This document shows positions 1,902 to 13,309 of a stretch of DNA of 13,309 nucleotides, piece after piece (the first letter of the stretch is position 1; the number at the start of each line of letters is the position of its first letter). The translations under genes were made by a program, and so were the position numbers. The notes beneath the pieces were generated by a model that saw only the letters and a program-made list of their open reading frames with translations, had not been told where the DNA came from and did no database searches. This stretch comes from Deltaproteobacteria bacterium (GTDB lineage: Bacteria > UBA10199 > GCA-002796325 > JACPFF01), in NCBI GenBank assembly GCA_016183125.1, contig JACPFG010000072.1, forward strand, positions 1-13,309. The letters are read 5' to 3'.

Positions 1902-1952
1902 TACCGCCGATAAATAGTGATAGAGAGGAGTGCAAGAGGGGTTCTGCGCCGC

Positions 1953-3308
1953 ATGACTGCTAACTATTTGAAATTACAGTTATTCGTTTTGGCGGGGGAG
2001 CCGGTGCGGCCTTTCCCCCCGGATCCGCATGGTCTCCCAGAGGCTAATCCGCAGGCACCTAAGGCGCCTCTGCCGCCGCAACCAGGCCGATTGCCGTTTA
2101 GCCCCCAGCCGCCGGGCCAGGTAATAAGGGGGCCTTGGGCACCGAGTCCATCTACCCCACCAGTGGTAATACCACCAGTTGCAGGACCATTGATCGTTGG
2201 AGCGATTCTGGCACTCATTATCGGTGGACCGGGGGATATACCAGCCGCTCCGTTACCAAGGAGAGATAGCTACGGATGGGACCGCGCCCGTAGGCGTAGT
2301 CACGCTGGCGATCCGGTCACGCCACCAAAACCGGAACGGTTGCTGGAAGAACGGATGCGTTGTCTGGAAGACGAACGCCGCCGGTTTCTTAACAACGGCG
2401 ACACGGACGGCGCTGGCAGGGTGGCCGCCGAACTGGCCGCGGCAGAGGGGCAACTGGCCGATTTTCACGCGTCCGGCCCCTTGGCGAATGGCCAGCACCA
2501 ATTACCCGCCGCTGGCGGTGGGCTATTTACAGAGACATGGACACGCGCCGGGGAGATATTCGCTACCGCCGGAAATATTCATCCGGATGGCGCAGCCAGT
2601 TCGGCGCAAGTGTCGAATATTGAAGATGAACATACGGAACCTGGGTCGTCGCATTTGGCATGGCAGTTAAACGACATTGCAAGCGCTACCGAACTCCTTA
2701 GATATCTTCGCGGTCTCTCACCAAGGACGCAATTTCGCCTGCCTGATGGAAACCAGATCGGTAAGCGGGCGCTCCAATTAGCGGTCCTTGACTGGATCAA
2801 TCGCCTAGGCAGGGAGATTGTTATACCAAAGAAGGGGCACAAACCGCCGCCGGAGCCGGTGTTGCCGGCGGATATACAAAAAAAACTGGCTGATCTCAAA
2901 CCGGTCCTAAAGGCATACACCGAGGAGAAAGCGGCAGCAGCGAATAAGGCCCTATTTATGCGGCTGTCACCGCCAGAGCTGCCCCCGACCCGTGCCGCCC
3001 TGGAAATAATCGGCTGGAAAGGACTTGAGCTGGCAGGGTGGCCCGAGACATGGTCGTGGACATTTGGGAGCGGGAGAAATGGCAAGGCGCCCGATCTGGT
3101 TGTCGGCGCGACCCAGGCCTCCGGAATGCACGGGACGATCACGTGGGACGGGAATAATTTTGTGATTTCAGTGGAAGGTCGGAATGGTCTCTATGTTAAC
3201 GGAATACATTACCAGAAGGGCGCAAATGTCACATTAAAACCGAGGCAGGAATTTTTCATCGGCCACCAAAAAGGGGGCCTCCGTGTCCGGCTGGTCTTGC
3301 TCCCCTAA
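1953..3308 (+). CDS. Proline-rich, single-pass membrane protein with a C-terminal FHA (forkhead-associated, phosphothreonine-binding) domain
   Basis: ORF 1917-3308; the track start is GTG, and a more likely start is ATG 1953 (MTANYL...). It has a Pro-rich N-terminus (PQAPKAPLPPQPGRLPFSPQPP...), a TM helix PLIVGAILALIIGGPG (about nt 2184-2231), and a C-terminal FHA signature FGSGRNGKAPDLVVG...SGMHGTITWDGNNFVISVEGRNGLYVNGIHYQKG...FIGHQ...LRV. Confidence 0.8.
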   Translation: MTANYLKLQLFVLAGEPVRPFPPDPHGLPEANPQAPKAPLPPQPGRLPFSPQPPGQVIRGPWAPSPSTPPVVIPPVAGPLIVGAILALIIGGPGDIPAAPLPRRDSYGWDRARRRSHAGDPVTPPKPERLLEERMRCLEDERRRFLNNGDTDGAGRVAAELAAAEGQLADFHASGPLANGQHQLPAAGGGLFTETWTRAGEIFATAGNIHPDGAASSAQVSNIEDEHTEPGSSHLAWQLNDIASATELLRYLRGLSPRTQFRLPDGNQIGKRALQLAVLDWINRLGREIVIPKKGHKPPPEPVLPADIQKKLADLKPVLKAYTEEKAAAANKALFMRLSPPELPPTRAALEIIGWKGLELAGWPETWSWTFGSGRNGKAPDLVVGATQASGMHGTITWDGNNFVISVEGRNGLYVNGIHYQKGANVTLKPRQEFFIGHQKGGLRVRLVLLP

Positions 3309-3327
3309 AACTCCAGCGACAGCGTGA
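3307..3327. repeat. Left copy of the 21-bp direct repeat AAAACTCCAGCGACAGCGTGA. On the - strand it reads ...RFTLSLEF-stop, a relic of the OMP gene 3' end.
   Basis: Exact 21/21 match to 4049-4069. Flanking bases are also similar (cggttc vs cgtctc). It overlaps the FHA gene stop TAA 3306-3308. Confidence 0.7.
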
Positions 3328-3348
3328 ACCGGCCGAGGGGTCGAAGGA

Positions 3349-3377
3349 TTGACAGAGACGTCATAATTATGATACTC
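3349..3377 (+). promoter_or_regulatory. vapBC promoter/operator. -35 TTGACA (3349-3354); a perfect 12-bp palindrome TCATAATTATGA (3361-3372) overlaps the -10 region (GATACT 3371-3376) and is a likely VapB RHH operator.
   Basis: Consensus -35 read directly. A perfect palindrome immediately upstream of an RHH-antitoxin gene is the classic autoregulatory layout. Confidence 0.4.
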
Positions 3378-3399
3378 ATACCTTCGGAGGGGGGTGGAT

Positions 3400-3642
3400 A
3401 TGGCGACCTCTGTGCGCACGACCATCGTGCTTCCCGGCGAAAAACTGAAGGAGCTCAAACGGCTCGCGTTTGAGCAGGGTTCCACGATCGGCCGGCTGGT
3501 GAACGAGGCCTTGGACCGGGTGTTTTTCAAGCGGCGGAAACAACGGCGGTTTCATGACCTTCGGGGTCTCTGGAAGGGGCGGCGGTTTAGTGAAAGCGCC
3601 ATTGAGGCGGCGAAACTCCGGATGAAGACCTTTCCGTCATGA
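3400..3642 (+). CDS. vapB: Ribbon-helix-helix (CopG/VapB-type) antitoxin
   Basis: MATSVRTTIVLPGEKLKELKRLAFEQGSTIGRLVNEALDRVF... SD GGAGGGGGG (3387-3395). Stop TGA overlaps the vapC ATG (ATGA at 3639-3642). The track ORF starts at GTG 3394. Confidence 0.8.
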   Translation: MATSVRTTIVLPGEKLKELKRLAFEQGSTIGRLVNEALDRVFFKRRKQRRFHDLRGLWKGRRFSESAIEAAKLRMKTFPS

Positions 3643-4031
3643 CGTACGTGCCCGATACCCATGCCTTGGTGTGGTTTCTCGCCAATGATCCGCGTTTGGG
3701 TCGCCGCGCCGGGATGGTGTTTCAGGAGGCCGCAGCGCAGTTCGCTGTGCCCACTCTCGTGCTCTGCGAGATGCACTATTTGGCGGAGCGGGAACGCATT
3801 GCCAGGGACATGGCCAAGATCCTCGACTATATGCGGGGCGACGATCGCTTCGCCCTGATCCCCTTGGATGAGAACGTTATTAGGCATCTCCCCGGGGGCC
3901 TGGACATTCATGATGGCATTATCGTTGCCACGGCGCTTGCCGTCGGCATGGCACGAAAGACCAAATCCATTCTTGTCACCCGCGATGCCGACATCCGCCG
4001 CGCGGGCCTGGTCGAAACTATTTGGGAGTAA
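3639..4031 (+). CDS. vapC: PIN-domain ribonuclease toxin VapC
   Basis: 130 aa. Conserved acidic residues: D6 (VPDTHAL), E (LCEMHYLAE), D (IHDGIIVATA) and D (VTRDADI). 4-nt overlap with vapB. Confidence 0.85.
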   Translation: MTYVPDTHALVWFLANDPRLGRRAGMVFQEAAAQFAVPTLVLCEMHYLAERERIARDMAKILDYMRGDDRFALIPLDENVIRHLPGGLDIHDGIIVATALAVGMARKTKSILVTRDADIRRAGLVETIWE

Positions 4032-4046
4032 GAGCGCGTAACGAAA

Positions 4047-5699
4047 TCAAAACTCCAGCGACAGCGTGAGACGTCCCCCGTACGCGGGATTGGCCTTGTC
4101 GTACGGCATCGTGGCGACGATCGAGCCCGGATCGATCAGCCCGACATCGATATTATAAGCGCTCCCCGGCCAGAGATAGCCTGCCTCGAGGCTGGTGAAG
4201 AGGTGATCGAAGAAGCGGGCCTCTGCGACCAGGTCGAATTCAACACCGTACCATTTCCCCCGGCTCTCGATCGAGGGCATATTGGCGTTCCCCAGGATCT
4301 CGGCGAAATTAAGGCTCACAGGCGGCTTGTGCGCCCAGGCGGTGATCACCCGCCCACCTACCTTAAACTCATTGGCCGACCTAATCGCCCGGCGGATATC
4401 GAGCCGGTGCAGATATGTCGCCCCGCCGTAGAAGGCGTTATTGATGAAATTGCCGGTGATCGGCACGCCGCCGGTAAGGGTAGCACCGGTCGTCCCGTTT
4501 CGCAGTGTCGGCGATGTTCCAAGCGGGTGGTGGAATAGGAGCAGGCCGAGATTATAGTCCGGCCGGAAGCCGAACTGTGTGATCCGCTGCGAGAGCGGTG
4601 TTGCATCCCCCTCGGCAAAACCTCCCTGCAGCTTCCACTCTCCGCCCCAGTCGTAGGTCCCCTCCGCCTCGACGGCAGCTAGATTAACAGCCAGGTCCTG
4701 CTTGGCCGGCAGCTGGATTATCCCGGGGGCGGCAAGGCCCGTGAATGGGATGGCATTTAGGGCCACACCTGTGGAGATCTTGCCGCCCAGCCGCACATAT
4801 TCGAAGGCCACCTTGTGGTGCGGATCGATCTTCACCCGGCCATACGCATCTAGAAAATACATAAGCGTGTCGCCGTCTATGCCTGCGGCCTGGGTGACAC
4901 CGTTGATGTCCGTCGCCGTCGTCGTGGTGCCAGTGCTCCCGTCCCGCCTGCGCAGGCCCCCATAGGCCCCCACCGCAAAGCGGGGCTCCTCATAGAAGGC
5001 GACCAGGGCATACTGGTTCGTATCCTGCCCGTTATCCCGAATGGCTGTGCCCAGCCCCCCGATCCGCGGGTCCCGCTGGGCCTCGAACGCGATGTCCCAT
5101 AGCGCGCCGACCGTCAGGGCCCCATCGGTGCCGATCGCCTGCTGGGTTAAGAACATCACCCGGTCGGCCGTGTCGCCAAAATCACCCTGTCGGTGGTTGC
5201 CGTCGTTCTGGAAGATCCCCAGCCCCCAGTGAGAGGGCTGGCGCCCTGCGCGCAATTTGCCAATCGGCGTGAAGATGTCGATCCACGCGCGGCGCACGTT
5301 GAGACTGCGGTTTTCGCCCGCCTCGCTCCCGACCACACTCAAACTCCCCGCGCCGGCGGGGAGCGTGATCGTGCCCACCACCGGTGAGAGGACCTCCAGT
5401 TGTTTGGTCGCCTGGCTGCCGAAGGTCAGATTGTCGAGGATATCGAACTGGGTGTGGAGAGAGAGAAAATCGTTTACCTTGAGTGTCGGTTCCACCCGCA
5501 GGCGCATCTGGTTGTACTGGATAAGGCCGAACCGGTCGTTCGTATTTGCCAGGGTGCTCGGCCTCTGTGTATCAAGATCTTGAAGCGCCGACCCTCTGAG
5601 CCGATAGTAACCGTGCGCGGCAAAATCAACCGCGTGGCCAAGGCGGGGAGAGAGGACGCAGCAAAGTAATGCCGGCAACAACCGCGCGATCGCTTTCAT
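4047..5699 (-). CDS. Outer-membrane beta-barrel protein, 550 aa, with signal peptide and C-terminal Phe
   Basis: N-terminal MKAIARLLPALLCCVLSPRLGHA signal peptide. Alternating hydrophobic beta-strand pattern, rich in G/Y/N/D. C-terminal ...GGRLTLSLEF, the aromatic terminus typical of the OMP beta-signal. No family assignment is possible by eye. Confidence 0.75.
   Translation of the reverse strand: MKAIARLLPALLCCVLSPRLGHAVDFAAHGYYRLRGSALQDLDTQRPSTLANTNDRFGLIQYNQMRLRVEPTLKVNDFLSLHTQFDILDNLTFGSQATKQLEVLSPVVGTITLPAGAGSLSVVGSEAGENRSLNVRRAWIDIFTPIGKLRAGRQPSHWGLGIFQNDGNHRQGDFGDTADRVMFLTQQAIGTDGALTVGALWDIAFEAQRDPRIGGLGTAIRDNGQDTNQYALVAFYEEPRFAVGAYGGLRRRDGSTGTTTTATDINGVTQAAGIDGDTLMYFLDAYGRVKIDPHHKVAFEYVRLGGKISTGVALNAIPFTGLAAPGIIQLPAKQDLAVNLAAVEAEGTYDWGGEWKLQGGFAEGDATPLSQRITQFGFRPDYNLGLLLFHHPLGTSPTLRNGTTGATLTGGVPITGNFINNAFYGGATYLHRLDIRRAIRSANEFKVGGRVITAWAHKPPVSLNFAEILGNANMPSIESRGKWYGVEFDLVAEARFFDHLFTSLEAGYLWPGSAYNIDVGLIDPGSIVATMPYDKANPAYGGRLTLSLEF
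4049..4069. repeat. Right copy of the 21-bp direct repeat AAAACTCCAGCGACAGCGTGA. It forms the functional 3' end (…RLTLSLEF-stop) of the OMP gene.
   Basis: Exact match to 3307-3327. Confidence 0.7.
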
Positions 5700-7922: not shown

Positions 7923-8200
7923 TACAGGACAAATCCCCTCTTCTTGGCCAGCTCCTTCTTTATCAACTGGAATGCGCGGGCCTCGTCGATCACCGCAGAA
8001 TGCTTGCGCAACTGGGCCTGCAGTAGGCGATTGGCCTCCTCCTCCAGTGCTCGCTCGGTGGCTTGGTCGTCCTCCAGGAGTGTCGCGATCCGCCCGGCTA
8101 CGGAAGCAGGATCGGCCCGTAGCCTTACCCCTTTTTGTGTCTCCAGGGACCGAGTAATCGCCCGAGAGATCCCCGCCACATGTTGGCGACGCAATTTCAT
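7922..8200 (-). CDS. Small hypothetical protein (gene A, 92 aa). It is the first gene of a two-gene unit upstream of groES.
   Basis: MKLRRQHVAGISRAITRSLETQKGVRLRADPASVAGRIATLLEDDQATERALEEEANRLLQAQLRKHSAVIDEARAFQLIKKELAKKRGFVL. SD GAGGGG sits 6 nt before ATG (rc of 8198-8200). The stop overlaps the gene B start (TAATG). The longer track ORF 7922-8350 would overlap the divergent promoter. Confidence 0.55.
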   Translation of the reverse strand: MKLRRQHVAGISRAITRSLETQKGVRLRADPASVAGRIATLLEDDQATERALEEEANRLLQAQLRKHSAVIDEARAFQLIKKELAKKRGFVL

Positions 8201-10175: not shown

Positions 10176-11359
10176 TGAAATCGGTCCGCGAGATTGCGTG
10201 TCACGAACAGCGCGTCTTCTTGCGCGTCGATTGGAATTGTCCGCTGGCCGACGACAGGGTGGCCGACGATGCGCGCATCCGTGCGACGTTGCCTACCGTC
10301 AGGTATCTGTTGGAGCAGAAGGCGCGTATTATAATTGCGTCACATCTAGGCCGGCCTTCCGGCGCCGGTTTCGAGCCAAGCTATTCTCTGGCCCCTGTGG
10401 GGGAGCGGCTGGCCGAACTCCTGGCGGACGACACGGAGGTCCTTTTGCCGGAGGATTGCATCGGAGATGCGGCGCGGAAGCTGGCGCATGAACTTGCGCC
10501 GGGCCAGATCCTCTTGTTGGAAAATCTTCGATTTCATCCGGAGGAGGAGAAGAATGATCCCAAATTCGCCGAGTTGCTGGCCGGTCTGGCGGAGGTCTAC
10601 GTGAACGATGCCTTCGGGGCCGCGCATCGGGCGCACGCCTCCATCGTCGGCGTGCCTCGGCTGATGCCGGTGAAGGCGGCCGGATTACTGATGCAGCGGG
10701 AGACAGAGCAGTTAGGTCAGTTGCTTTCTAAACCTGCCCGCCCATTCGTGGCCATGTTGGGGGGGGCCAAGGTGGCAGATAAGATCGGCGTGATCGAGCA
10801 TCTGCTGTCTACCGCAGATGTGCTCGCTATCGGTGGCGCGATGGCGTATACGTTTCTCAAGGCAAAGGAAATTTCAGTCGGCAGGTCGCCGGTGGACGAG
10901 GCGAAGGTGTTCACCGCGCGCAAGGTGCTGGAGCGGGCCGAGACTAAGGGGGTGCGGGTGCTCCTCCCGGCGGACCATATCGCTGCGGCGTCGCCGGAGG
11001 CCGCCGGAAAGGTGATCCGGGAGGCTAATATCCCGGCCGACTTGCAAGGATGCGACATCGGACCCCAAACGACCGTCCAGTTTGCCAGGGTCTGCAAGGA
11101 GGCTCGCACTATCTTTTGGAACGGTCCTATGGGCCGGTTTGAGATCCCGGAGTTTGCGAAAGGAACGGTGGCGGTGGCGCAGGCAGTAGCGGCCAGTGAG
11201 GCGGTGACGGTGGTAGGGGGCGGCGATTCGATTGCGGCGCTGCATCAGGCAGGTGTGGCTGAACGGATCACCCATGTCTCTACTGGTGGAGGGGCAAGCC
11301 TGGATTTCCTGGAGGGGAAGACCCTGCCGGGGATAGAGGCGCTGGAGGTTTCTTCATGA
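10166..11359 (+). CDS. pgk: Phosphoglycerate kinase
   Basis: Canonical PGK sequence throughout. The start is one of ATG 10166, 10172 or 10175; 10175 overlaps the gap stop as TGATG. The TGA stop overlaps the tpiA ATG (ATGA). Confidence 0.95.
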   Translation: MVMMKSVREIACHEQRVFLRVDWNCPLADDRVADDARIRATLPTVRYLLEQKARIIIASHLGRPSGAGFEPSYSLAPVGERLAELLADDTEVLLPEDCIGDAARKLAHELAPGQILLLENLRFHPEEEKNDPKFAELLAGLAEVYVNDAFGAAHRAHASIVGVPRLMPVKAAGLLMQRETEQLGQLLSKPARPFVAMLGGAKVADKIGVIEHLLSTADVLAIGGAMAYTFLKAKEISVGRSPVDEAKVFTARKVLERAETKGVRVLLPADHIAAASPEAAGKVIREANIPADLQGCDIGPQTTVQFARVCKEARTIFWNGPMGRFEIPEFAKGTVAVAQAVAASEAVTVVGGGDSIAALHQAGVAERITHVSTGGGASLDFLEGKTLPGIEALEVSS

Positions 11360-12011
11360 CATCACGGGGCCTGGTGGTGGGCAACTGGAAGATGCACGGG
11401 ACGATAGGGGAGAGCCTGAAGCTCGTAACAGGGATGGAGCATCATCTTAAGGCCCCTGTGGAGCTCGACGTTGCCGTGGCACCTCCTTTCACGGCGCTCT
11501 ATTCGGTAGGGATAACCCTGCAGGAGACCCAGTTTCATCTGGCGGCCCAACAGATGATATCGTGAATAAGAAACTTGAGGCTGCGTTGCGCAATGAGCTC
11601 GCGCCGATTTTTTGCGTAGGTGAGACGGCGGATGAGCGCGAACGGCGTGAAATGGAGACTGTGCTCGAGCGACAGATCAAACGAGGCCTGGCCGGGTTGC
11701 ATCATAAAGATGTGGAACATCTAGTGGTAGCCTACGAGCCGATATGGGCGATTGGGACGGGCAAGACAGCGACAGCAGACCAGATAGCCGAGGCCCATCA
11801 TTTCCTTCGCAATCTATTGGAAAAACTATACGATGCGCCTACGGCCGTGCAGGTGCGAATCCTCTACGGGGGAAGCGTCGCTGTGGAGAGTGCGGGTTTG
11901 ATAGCTGAGTTAAATGGGGTTGACGGTTTCCTGGTCGGTGGAGCGTCGCTAACAGCCGGTGACTTCGCCGAGATCGTCCGTACGGCTGAACTGAAGATCC
12001 GAAAGAGGTGA
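11356..12011 (+). pseudogene. tpiA: Triosephosphate isomerase gene disrupted by an internal deletion of about 118 nt plus a frameshift. The N-terminal 69-codon fragment is 11356-11565. The C-terminal 149-codon fragment is 11562-12011, in another frame.
   Basis: The N fragment ...VGNWKMHGT...VAVAPPFTAL...LAAQQMIS-stop matches TIM up to the AQN region. The C fragment starts (V)NKKLEAALRNELAPIFCVGE... and continues with YEPIWAIGTGKTAT...ILYGGSV...GGASL. The catalytic H95 segment is missing between them. Confidence 0.8.
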
Positions 12012-12523: not shown

Positions 12524-13309
12524 TTATTTTCCTAGAGTCTCTGCAAGGGCGTAGCTGGTAGAGCGCCCGCGCGCCGGATCTTTGGCCAGGATATGCCGCG
12601 CGACCAGGTCGTCAATATCGCGTAGCGCCGTATCTTGCGAGCACTTGGCTAGCTTCGCCCATTTCGACGATGTAAGCTTGCCGTCAAATCCATCGAGAAG
12701 ACGGTTGATGACAAGGCGTTGTCGGTCGTTTAAGGATTGGCTCCTCTGTTCTTCCCAAAAGCGCGCTTTTTTCATCACACCCGCGAGGATGGTCTCTGCG
12801 CCTTCGAAGGCCCGATCAAGACAGTTCAAGAACCAATCAAGCCAGAGCGTGATGTCGAGATAGCCCCTCTGGGTGGCTTCGAGAATGTCATAATAGGCCT
12901 TTCGCTCTTCCCGGATCTGCGCCGACATGCTGTAGAAGCGTTGCGCATTCTTCTCTGAGCGCGCGAGCGTAAGATCAGCAATGGCGCGTGCTATACGACC
13001 ATTGCCGTCGTCGAAAGGATGGATGGTGACAAACCAAAGGTGCGCCACACCTGCCTTGAGAACCAAATCGTCGGGCGCATCTTTTTTATTGAACCAGTGC
13101 AGAAACGCCTTCATCTCCGTGCGCAGGCGGTCAGTAGCGGGCGCCTCATAATGGACCCGCTCGCGGCCCGCCGCACCGGAAACAACCTGCATCGGGCCGG
13201 TCTTGTCTTTACGCCATGCACCGACGGTGATCTTGGTCATGCCGCTACGCCCGGTTGGAAACAGCGAGGCGTGCCATGCGAACAAGCGATTGGTGGTCAT
13301 CGGGTCGGC
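12524..13309 (-). CDS. Fic/Doc-family protein (AMPylase-type), 3' portion only; the 5' end lies beyond the window edge. Core motif HPFDDGNGRIAR and a C-terminal winged-helix-like domain.
   Basis: HPFxDGNGRxxR read directly in ...VTIHPFDDGNGRIARAIADLTLA... The ORF is still open at 13309 (track M at 13300 is internal). Stop at 12524-12526. Confidence 0.85.
   Translation of the reverse strand, partial: ADPMTTNRLFAWHASLFPTGRSGMTKITVGAWRKDKTGPMQVVSGAAGRERVHYEAPATDRLRTEMKAFLHWFNKKDAPDDLVLKAGVAHLWFVTIHPFDDGNGRIARAIADLTLARSEKNAQRFYSMSAQIREERKAYYDILEATQRGYLDITLWLDWFLNCLDRAFEGAETILAGVMKKARFWEEQRSQSLNDRQRLVINRLLDGFDGKLTSSKWAKLAKCSQDTALRDIDDLVARHILAKDPARGRSTSYALAETLGK

Follow-up and report, generated by a model that had tools for sequence, protein, structure and literature searches.

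The window analysed here, i.e., the whole 13.3-kb stretch of DNA, carries an FHA-domain gene and an outer-membrane-protein (OMP) gene in convergent orientation and, between them, a vapBC toxin-antitoxin (TA) cassette flanked by two copies of a 21-nt sequence. All four genes (FHA, OMP, vapB, and vapC) are intact. The features, from left to right, are:

1917-3308, + strand: FHA-domain gene (Pfam FHA, 1.6e-6, residues 386-446)
3305-3334, - strand: orphan OMP 3' end, G-R-F-T-L-S-L-E-F-TAG, with the exact 21-mer (left copy) at 3307-3327
3328-3348: left linker, 21 nt from the left repeat to the vapB promoter
3349-3376, + strand: predicted vapBC promoter, sigma-70-like, TTGACA-16-GATACT
3361-3372: predicted VapB operator, a perfect 12-bp palindrome, TCATAATTATGA, overlapping the -10 hexamer
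3387-3391: GGAGG upstream of vapB
3400-3642, + strand: vapB, 80-aa ribbon-helix-helix (RHH) antitoxin (Pfam Antitox_RHH, 2.4e-7)
3639-4031, + strand: vapC, 130-aa PIN-domain toxin (Pfam PIN, 2.2e-10)
4032-4048: right linker, 17 nt from the vapC stop to the right repeat
4049-4069: right copy of the 21-mer, spanning 20 coding bases at the end of the live OMP gene plus the first base of its stop
4047-5699, - strand: live OMP gene, 550-aa beta-barrel outer-membrane protein (Pfam Alginate_exp)

The OMP has at least 229 homologues, and a comparison of 120 homologue C-termini yielded a family C-terminal signal, R-[LF]-T-x-x-x-E-F, that the window OMP also carries. The protein matches TIGR04551 with 121.9 bits in its N-terminal part only, under the 300-bit NCBIfam cut-off, and is a TIGR04551-like, related protein; some of its homologues are labelled TIGR04551 by JGI. 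No homologue of the FHA gene was found besides itself, its GC3 is atypical (0.57 vs 0.65-0.80), and NCBI calls a shorter product of 372 aa. The order of genes downstream of the OMP gene is conserved in no relative.

The 721 bp between the repeats (3328-4048) hold the predicted promoter with the palindromic operator, the RHH and PIN genes of the TA pair, and nothing else, so that the repeats bound the vapBC unit within 21 nt on the left and 17 nt on the right. The one promoter-like site matches at 10/12 positions, while shuffled sequences average 0.4 sites, and the palindrome is conserved in the nearest related cassette (L009, 55% identical), where CATAATTATGA stands at the same place; the left linker displays no similarity to the OMP gene or to the L009 cassette. 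The stop of vapB and the start of vapC share 4 nt (Pfam gives the RHH region as 3394/3400-3642). VapC carries the acidic residues D6, E44, D92, and D116, the first three invariant across 20 homologues and D116 present in ≥90% of them. The insert is a complete vapBC module and an ordinary TA system, with self-regulation and toxicity both predicted. In GC and GC3 it matches the host genes, and there is therefore no compositional sign of recent import.

The 21-mer, AAAACTCCAGCGACAGCGTGA, occurs exactly twice in the 13.3-kb window, with starts 742 bp apart, and no third copy is found there even when up to 3 mismatches are allowed. None of 200 shuffles recreated the repeat, and no direct repeat in 585 kb of related loci exceeds it in length once those within repeat-domain genes are set aside, which places it far above chance expectation. 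Extended without gaps, the pair is identical at 25/28 positions; identity ends sharply beyond the 21 bp, the next 7 nt agreeing at 4/7, and aligning the broader flanks of the two copies locally gives no significant match (p = 0.70). Coding constraint does not account for the repeat either, because across 39 OMP orthologues the corresponding 21 nt agree at no more than 17/21 positions, and at 16/21 in the closest relatives. Across the fetched loci, the 21-mer was found only in L001, which derives from the same strain as the window, and it was not found in the viral collection. L001 is an independent Logan assembly in which the right junction is identical base for base; this contig stops within vapB, so that independent junction support covers the right side alone.

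Read on the minus strand, the two copies form one live and one orphan OMP end. The live gene ends in …GGRLTLSLEF followed by TGA (4047-4049), with the final two bases of the right linker supplying the GA of this stop. The left copy ends in …LGRFTLSLEF followed by TAG (3305-3307), which overlaps the TAA of the FHA gene (3306-3308) on the other strand. Next to the 21-mer, Gly-Arg is kept in both copies via different codons (GGC CGG vs GGA CGT); the chance of finding Gly-Arg at that place in the orphan end is about 0.01, a post hoc figure resting on 7 nt. The arrangement resembles a pair of diverged OMP ends that were fused where their sequences were identical. The TAG stop of the orphan end is also that of the closest relatives, L004 and L005, and its Phe at position -9 is shared with L005. 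Overall, the anatomy given in the preliminary description was confirmed in full, including the position and number of the repeat copies, the live and orphan OMP ends, the self-contained promoter/operator with vapB-vapC (by Pfam and promoter search), and the lack of a recombinase in the unit, which extends to the 13.3-kb window; there is also good support for its proposal that the OMP 3' end was duplicated by an insertion, with TAG closing the left copy as it does the OMP genes of L004 and L005.

Its predictions about other genomes fared less well. It had anticipated a single-copy empty site in relatives, and had pointed to copies of the 21-mer or its flanking bases beside other cargo as a check. 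No empty site was found in the collections examined, the FHA gene having no homologues by which to find one; no 21-mer beside other cargo, second insertion of the vapBC cassette, or excised form was found either. It had also named a reading that would undo its own, in which the 21-mer is a common dispersed repeat; the 21-mer is not such a repeat, a second OMP-end copy downstream of the gene being seen at 0/42 related OMP loci. The nearest vapBC relative, L009, lies at another genomic place and has no flanking repeats. In L005, whose OMP gene is 79% related, an unrelated Phd-PIN pair abuts the same OMP stop codon, again with no repeat. A different TA pair at the same stop suggests that this spot accepts such cassettes, and L004 and L005 both display substitution-type variation there.

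Among the Pfam matches of every sizeable ORF in the 13.3-kb window there is no recombinase, transposase, or integrase, and the window contains no tRNA. No terminal inverted repeats pair the two ends of the insert; for this reason, and with a 21-bp duplication longer than typical, the insert does not fit a transposon or IS insertion. The dif consensus has no match at ≤3 mismatches anywhere in the window and the 21-mer lacks dyad symmetry of the tyrosine-recombinase-core kind; the unit thus does not fit a Xer dif module, which calls for a 28-bp dif-like site. Nor does it fit an integron gene cassette: neither strand of the junction regions folds better than shuffled sequence (z-scores 0.4 to 1.65), i.e., no attC-like hairpin, and the window has no GTTRRRY core and no intI.

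Taken together, these observations indicate that the cassette with its flanking repeats is a real insertion scar, as far as it can be read from a single case. Our tentative preference, held at somewhat below even confidence, is that a circular or donor DNA recombined with the OMP 3' end across the 21-bp identity, under selection for the C-terminal Phe. The starting state would be two convergent genes with overlapping stop codons, into whose junction the vapBC module entered by reciprocal recombination, the crossover falling in the terminal 21 bp of the OMP gene. What came in would most simply be a small circle or donor fragment in which vapBC lay beside a short segment resembling an OMP 3' end, and which recombined with the chromosomal OMP end in Campbell fashion, either site-specifically with an enzyme acting in trans or through a short-homology event. 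With the crossover inside the 21 bp, the shared sequence would now stand on both sides: the right copy would finish the live OMP, the insert giving the last two bases of its new TGA, and the left copy would be the displaced original end with its ancestral TAG, still supplying the TAA of the FHA gene on the opposite strand. What we infer here is the direction in which the event ran, its circular or donor intermediate, and the involvement of an enzyme. The C-terminal aromatic residue of beta-barrel OMPs is required for BAM-dependent assembly, and therefore only events that remake …LEF-stop would persist.

In support of this recombination we count a repeat beyond chance and coding constraint, its sharp end at 21 bp with Gly-Arg kept, the relative-like TAG and Phe of the left copy, the minimal and tightly bounded cargo, the lack of inverted repeats, transposase, and integrase, the L005 TA pair at the same stop, the independently assembled right junction, and the precedent of gene-restoring 3'-end integration by ICE/IME/CIME elements (PMC5704250). 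Against it we count the lack of an empty site, second insertion, or excised form, the repeat-free L009 and L005 loci, a 21-mer with neither dyad symmetry nor hairpin, a Gly-Arg signal resting on 7 nt, the flank alignment (p = 0.70), and the host-like GC and GC3. An identity of 21 bp also lies at the lower edge of RecA-type recombination substrates. Site-specific integration of a decayed island or of a cassette mobilized in trans, as first proposed, is compatible with the locus as one of several mechanisms that fit.

The same exact identity and sharp end at 21 bp, together with the lack of any mobility gene, would also follow from a target duplication at staggered breaks, in which a double-strand break took up the cassette, or a transposition-like reaction inserted it at cuts 21 bp apart, and fill-in doubled the 21 bp. 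Kobayashi's group reported this pattern for restriction-modification (RM) units. Addiction modules without mobility genes are documented in target duplications of 45-47 bp and more over gene 3' ends (PMC2853133; PMC3874152). However, there are no terminal inverted repeats, 21 bp falls between transposon duplications (mostly <15 bp) and RM cases (>30 bp; PMC2853133), the nearest cassette relative has no duplication, and the Gly-Arg codons by the left copy would be a coincidence at about 0.01. We consider this origin unlikely.

It is also doubtful that the resident OMP 3' part was replaced by OMP-vapBC DNA of a relative through homology-facilitated illegitimate recombination, with one end anchored by OMP/groEL homology and the other joined 21-30 nt before the resident stop, which would leave the resident end as a relic. 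Such alleles, at 4/7 beside the repeat, should not be 21/21 inside it, since orthologues of 86% protein identity already differ at 3/21 nt; moreover, GC3 displays no break along the OMP gene, and the origin of a TA pair at the donor's OMP end would merely be moved back. What this replacement would explain is the pairing of a relic TAG and Arg-Phe, as in the nearest relatives, with a live TGA and Arg-Leu, and it would fit the TA pair directly beside the OMP stop of L005 and the substitution-type variation in L004 and L005. Over its last ~50 residues the OMP is also somewhat less similar to P0002/P0003 (0.64/0.70) than over the whole gene on average (0.77/0.79), which points weakly in the same direction.

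More improbable still is a rearrangement relic, in which vapBC was already the OMP neighbour and a 21-30-nt OMP end was either brought in by a later-arriving FHA side or left behind when a deletion took out most of another OMP copy. An orphan FHA gene with atypical GC3 and the unconserved order downstream of the OMP gene would suit such a history, yet it requires another OMP copy whose end is identical at 21/21, whereas no paralogue from this MAG is among the matches listed, and a breakpoint that spared both genes. Finally, an assembly artefact, i.e., a circular or strain-variant sequence sharing the 21-mer and built into the contig as a loop, is scarcely credible: the contig belongs to a MAG, the repeat is as long as a frequently used k-mer (21 being the lowest k that common metagenome assemblers use by default), and L001, ending inside vapB, covers the right junction alone, but that junction is reproduced by this independent assembly, all reading frames and stops are intact at both junctions, and a loop would still need the 21-mer beside both cassette ends in real molecules.

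In a more far-reaching reading, the OMP-family 3' end could be an attachment site for minimal, recombinase-less TA cassettes, which would pass between related bacteria as circles mobilized in trans and each bear a short OMP-end mimic that restores the essential C-terminal signal upon integration, with the RHH-PIN pair of the window and the Phd-PIN pair of L005 as two independent captures. We regard this as a long shot.

Compared with known systems, the genes themselves are those of the VapBC family, with an RHH gene overlapping a PIN gene by 4 nt, conserved acidic residues, and a palindrome in the predicted promoter; the window genes as such do not differ from that family, and the nearest homologue is 55% identical. 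In chromosomal integrons, individual TA operons that have promoters of their own behave as cassettes, and the window unit is likewise a lone TA operon with its own predicted promoter, but its boundaries have no attC-like hairpin or GTTRRRY core and the window has no intI. The dif modules of Acinetobacter plasmids carry TA or resistance genes between XerC/XerD sites, some of them a TA pair only, and host recombinases acting in trans are believed to mobilize them (PMC6449649, PMC6160057). The window unit is similarly very small and recombinase-less; it differs in having no 28-bp dif-like site, in repeats that directly copy a coding 3' end, and in its chromosomal rather than plasmid location.

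ICE and IME elements integrate into the 3' ends of protein genes with a gene-restoring repeat, and CIMEs have lost the integrase while keeping attL and attR (PMC5704250). The window shares with them an insert placed at the 3' end of a protein gene and att-like flanks without an integrase: its 21-bp repeats are direct and the right copy completes the OMP gene. Unlike these elements, the unit is 721 bp with a TA operon only, its 21-mer has no recombinase-core symmetry, the 13.3-kb window holds no cognate integrase, and neither a second element nor an empty attB or shared att site was found in the collections, the 42 OMP loci, or L005. Kobayashi's group has described "insertion with long target duplication" for RM units (Nobusato 2000; Furuta, Abe & Kobayashi 2010), including a Haemophilus influenzae RM unit whose repeat overlaps a gene 3' end (PMC2853133). 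Here too, an addiction-type unit with no mobility genes is flanked by a direct duplication of a unique target. RM duplications, however, range from 45-47 bp to >400 bp and are proven by empty-site genomes, whereas the window repeat is 21 bp exact (25/28 extended), under the 30-bp limit set for such cases, with a type II TA as cargo and no empty site.

As one locus on one metagenome-assembled contig, the window documents an insertion scar without revealing its mechanism: an ordinary TA with an instructive, unreplicated scar. To our knowledge, chromosomal TA operons are termed mobile while most have no mobility gene or recognizable ends. A TA operon with sharp ends and a function-restoring target duplication would be a rare physical trace of movement, in parallel with the movement shown for restriction-modification units.

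The 13,309-bp window, a contig from a metagenome assembly labeled 'Deltaproteobacteria bacterium', contains exactly two occurrences of the 21-mer AAAACTCCAGCGACAGCGTGA (3307-3327 and 4049-4069), with no third copy when up to 3 mismatches were allowed and no match in dinucleotide-preserving shuffles (0/200). The pair extends without gaps to 25 identical positions of 28, and sits within the following features:

1917-3308, + strand: FHA-domain gene, FHA domain C-terminal
3400-3642, + strand: ORF for a ribbon-helix-helix (RHH) antitoxin (vapB)
3639-4031, + strand: ORF for a PIN-domain protein (vapC)
4047-5699, - strand: 550-aa ORF for a beta-barrel outer-membrane protein (OMP) of Alginate_exp/TIGR04551-like signature; groEL-groES come next

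Read on the minus strand, the right copy specifies T-L-S-L-E-F and supplies the first base of the TGA closing 4047-5699, i.e., the live OMP end; the GA of this stop comes from insert-side DNA beyond the repeat. In the left copy, these six residues are followed on the minus strand by a TAG (3305-3307), which shares bases with the TAA (3306-3308) ending the plus-strand ORF 1917-3308; this copy represents an orphan OMP end. Overall, this confirms the core observation of the preliminary description, namely an exact repeat pair with one live and one orphan OMP terminus. The 7 nt immediately inside the 21-mer are 4/7 identical (GGCCGGT on the left vs GGACGTC on the right), but each still codes for Gly-Arg, the conserved OMP-family residues that come next (chance at a given place in window sequence ~0.01, in a post hoc test). 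A crossover joining two diverged OMP ends would be expected to produce just such a perfect block giving way at once to synonymous-type differences, although this evidence is thin. We also considered a longer OMP relic, as the 31 nt inside the left copy seemed by eye to align with both the OMP gene and the related locus L005, but dropped it because local alignment of the 70-nt flanks beyond the 7-nt extension was no better than shuffles (p = 0.70).

The repeat is a recognizable OMP terminus, since the best 120 OMP homologues share a conserved C-terminal ...G-R-[LFV]-T-x-x-x-E-F that the left copy reproduces. The equivalent 21 nt in 39 orthologous OMP genes match the window 21-mer at ≤17/21 (16/21 for the two closest relatives), which excludes coding constraint as the source of the 21/21 identity and points instead to duplication or recombination inside this genome. 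None of 42 related loci carried a second copy of its own OMP end downstream of the OMP gene (best 30-nt match ≤19, longest exact word ≤12, compared with 25/30 and a 21-nt word in the window). No other direct repeat with copies spaced 250-4000 bp apart in 585 kb of fetched loci was as long as the window repeat, except within repeat-domain genes. The preliminary description had considered that a common dispersed repeat would make the match coincidental; the viral collection, however, did not contain the 21-mer, and among the fetched loci it occurred only in the window and L001, the same strain.

The 721 bp between the repeats form a minimal, apparently functional vapBC operon, with an antitoxin, a PIN toxin, a promoter, and a palindrome all present; the cargo is thus self-contained, as first described. 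VapC retains acidic residues D6, E44, D92, and D116, invariant or nearly so among homologues. The sole promoter-like site in 3150-4250 (TTGACA-16-GATACT, 3349-3376) has its -10 hexamer overlapped by the perfect palindrome TCATAATTATGA (3361-3372), and CATAATTATGA occurs at the equivalent position upstream of the closest vapBC relative, on locus L009. In this 55%-identical operon, CATAATTATGA, the predicted operator, lies between the -35 and -10 regions (L009 3340-3390), and it is a putative regulatory site conserved in this RHH-PIN subfamily. The cassette lies 21 nt from the left repeat and 17 nt from the right one, and its two genes are typical of the vapBC family. It shows no compositional sign of foreignness, as GC (0.58-0.62) and GC3 (0.73) are at the level of neighboring housekeeping genes. 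The vapBC and OMP genes are convergent (3639-4069 and 4047-5699), with 17 nt between stops and no terminator-like site, and read-through would yield antisense RNA to each other's 3′ ends.

Elsewhere in the window, the triosephosphate isomerase (TIM) gene (11356-12011) is interrupted: two ORFs in separate frames match positions 2-62 (11356-11565) and positions 106-244 (11562-12011) of the TIM profile. Roughly 40 codons, among them those of the region normally holding the catalytic His, are absent, consistent with either a pseudogene or an assembly error, while the surrounding gap-pgk-tpiA-secG cluster is otherwise intact. The contig ends with a Fic/DOC-family gene (12524-13300, - strand).

Comparison with relatives provides a candidate ancestral state. 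The closest OMP genes (79% identity) end in GGRVTLALEF-TAG (L004) and GGRFTLALEF-TAG (L005); the left copy has TAG and Arg-Phe, and the live copy TGA and Arg-Leu. A pre-event state in which the OMP and FHA genes were convergent with overlapping stops (...GAGTTTTAG/CTAAAAC...) would fit this pattern. Any insertion at such overlapping stops would truncate one of the genes unless the OMP end were re-created. Beta-barrel proteins require a C-terminal aromatic residue for recognition by the assembly machinery, and selection to keep this residue would be a simple explanation for the duplication of the OMP end.

An empty site was sought from both flanks. A search of 5.8 billion proteins returned no homologue of the FHA protein beyond the protein itself, so that the site is unreachable from that side; FHA gene GC3 is 0.57 vs 0.65-0.80 for its neighbors, and the gene may have arrived at this junction recently or be evolving fast. 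Exact-sequence look-ups with OMP, FHA, and VapB returned no match. OMP relatives were found in the genome collection (two loci, 51% identity), the metagenome collection (76 loci, ≤68% identity), and the protein collection, where the closest proteins (79%; L004 and L005) are non-syntenic on the FHA side. In none of these relatives is the gene order downstream of the OMP gene conserved, and no empty site was recovered via the FHA gene or OMP relatives. Further copies of the cassette were likewise not found: the closest VapC (55% identical) belongs to an operon between unrelated genes without flanking repeats, cassette DNA had no match in the plasmid collection (protein matches of 32-33% only), and no close relatives were detected in plasmid and phage-type collections. 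Nor was the 21-mer seen beside different cargo in the fetched loci or the viral collection, a recurrence that the preliminary description had suggested looking for.

Among about 40 distinct loci, a toxin–antitoxin (TA) system directly follows the OMP gene only in the window and in L005. The latter is a suggestive comparison: a Phd/YefM-PIN pair (2202-2940) with its own TTGACA promoter exactly fills the gap between the OMP stop, which its own stop overlaps, and the stop of a 696-aa gene; its PIN protein has no detectable similarity to the window VapC. The corresponding space in L004 (7528-9085) holds a 507-aa M28-like peptidase gene, so that the two loci display a substitution-type polymorphism. 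L005 has no duplicated OMP end, and a repeat pair there (12-nt and 14/18-nt), considered as a relic on the far side of the TA, was rejected as chance because it falls within the part of the 696-aa gene that encodes the conserved C-terminus. These counts do not establish the OMP 3′ end as a general TA hotspot, which is at most a possibility. In another relative (L051), a PIN pair lies about 1 kb from the OMP gene, and other small ORF pairs near OMP genes in relatives had no Pfam matches. Separately, a nucleotidyltransferase/HEPN-type (MNT-HEPN-like) pair, another TA-type module near this OMP gene family, occurs upstream of the OMP locus on a 65%-related contig (L090 1-619), and in the distantly related locus L003 a tRNA-like sequence (about 8095-8170, - strand) was recognized by reading the sequence, about 400 bp beyond the OMP gene on its downstream side.

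Taken together, an insertion that duplicated the OMP end is well supported, with site-specific integration, the original interpretation, one plausible mechanism among several. As initially noted, the unit encodes no recombinase, and neither a recombinase nor a transposase or tRNA was found in the 13.3-kb window. The insert ends have no terminal inverted repeats, no junction hairpin was better than shuffles, and the window includes no dif-like site, Rfam match, or terminator. We tentatively favor a Campbell-type recombination, in which a circle or donor DNA carrying vapBC and a short OMP-end-like segment would have recombined with the chromosomal OMP end, with the crossover within the 21-bp identity and the enzyme supplied in trans or acting on short homology. 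A staggered break with target duplication, as documented for restriction-modification units, could also have produced two copies, although we consider it rather unlikely. Similarly doubtful is homology-facilitated illegitimate recombination, by which the 3′ part of a relative's OMP gene would have been imported with the TA and the native end left as a relic. Against this allelic replacement speaks the 21/21 identity directly beside a stretch at 4/7, as orthologues at 86% protein identity already differ at 3/21 nt; the last ~50 OMP residues are slightly more diverged, but not enough to rescue the model. That the two ends were left by a rearrangement or deletion seems improbable, and an assembly loop at the shared 21-mer highly improbable: an independent Logan assembly of SRR12113422 (L001) matches the window with 0 differences over a stretch that runs from within vapB across the right repeat and on into the OMP gene, a support that concerns the right junction only.

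Several known systems share parts of this anatomy. Streptococcal ICEs and IMEs integrate into the 3′ ends of protein genes, with a repeat restoring the gene, and decay to att-flanked, integrase-less CIMEs (PMC5704250); the window locus is alike in anatomy, but has no integrase in the window and no empty attB found. Restriction-modification systems include addiction-type units without mobility genes, flanked by unique-target duplications, some overlapping a gene 3′ end (PMC2853133; PMC3874152). The window locus again resembles this long target duplication, but its repeat is <30 bp and no empty-site genome was found. Unlike dif modules, small TA-only modules moved in trans (PMC6449649; PMC6160057), it has no Xer site, and unlike integron cassettes, no attC. 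By these testable features, the locus is a member of none of the systems to which it is likened, and our literature search returned nothing specific on TA cassettes lying between repeats that reconstitute the end of a gene. Overall, we view this locus as a further example of an already known kind of scar, here with a TA operon as cargo.
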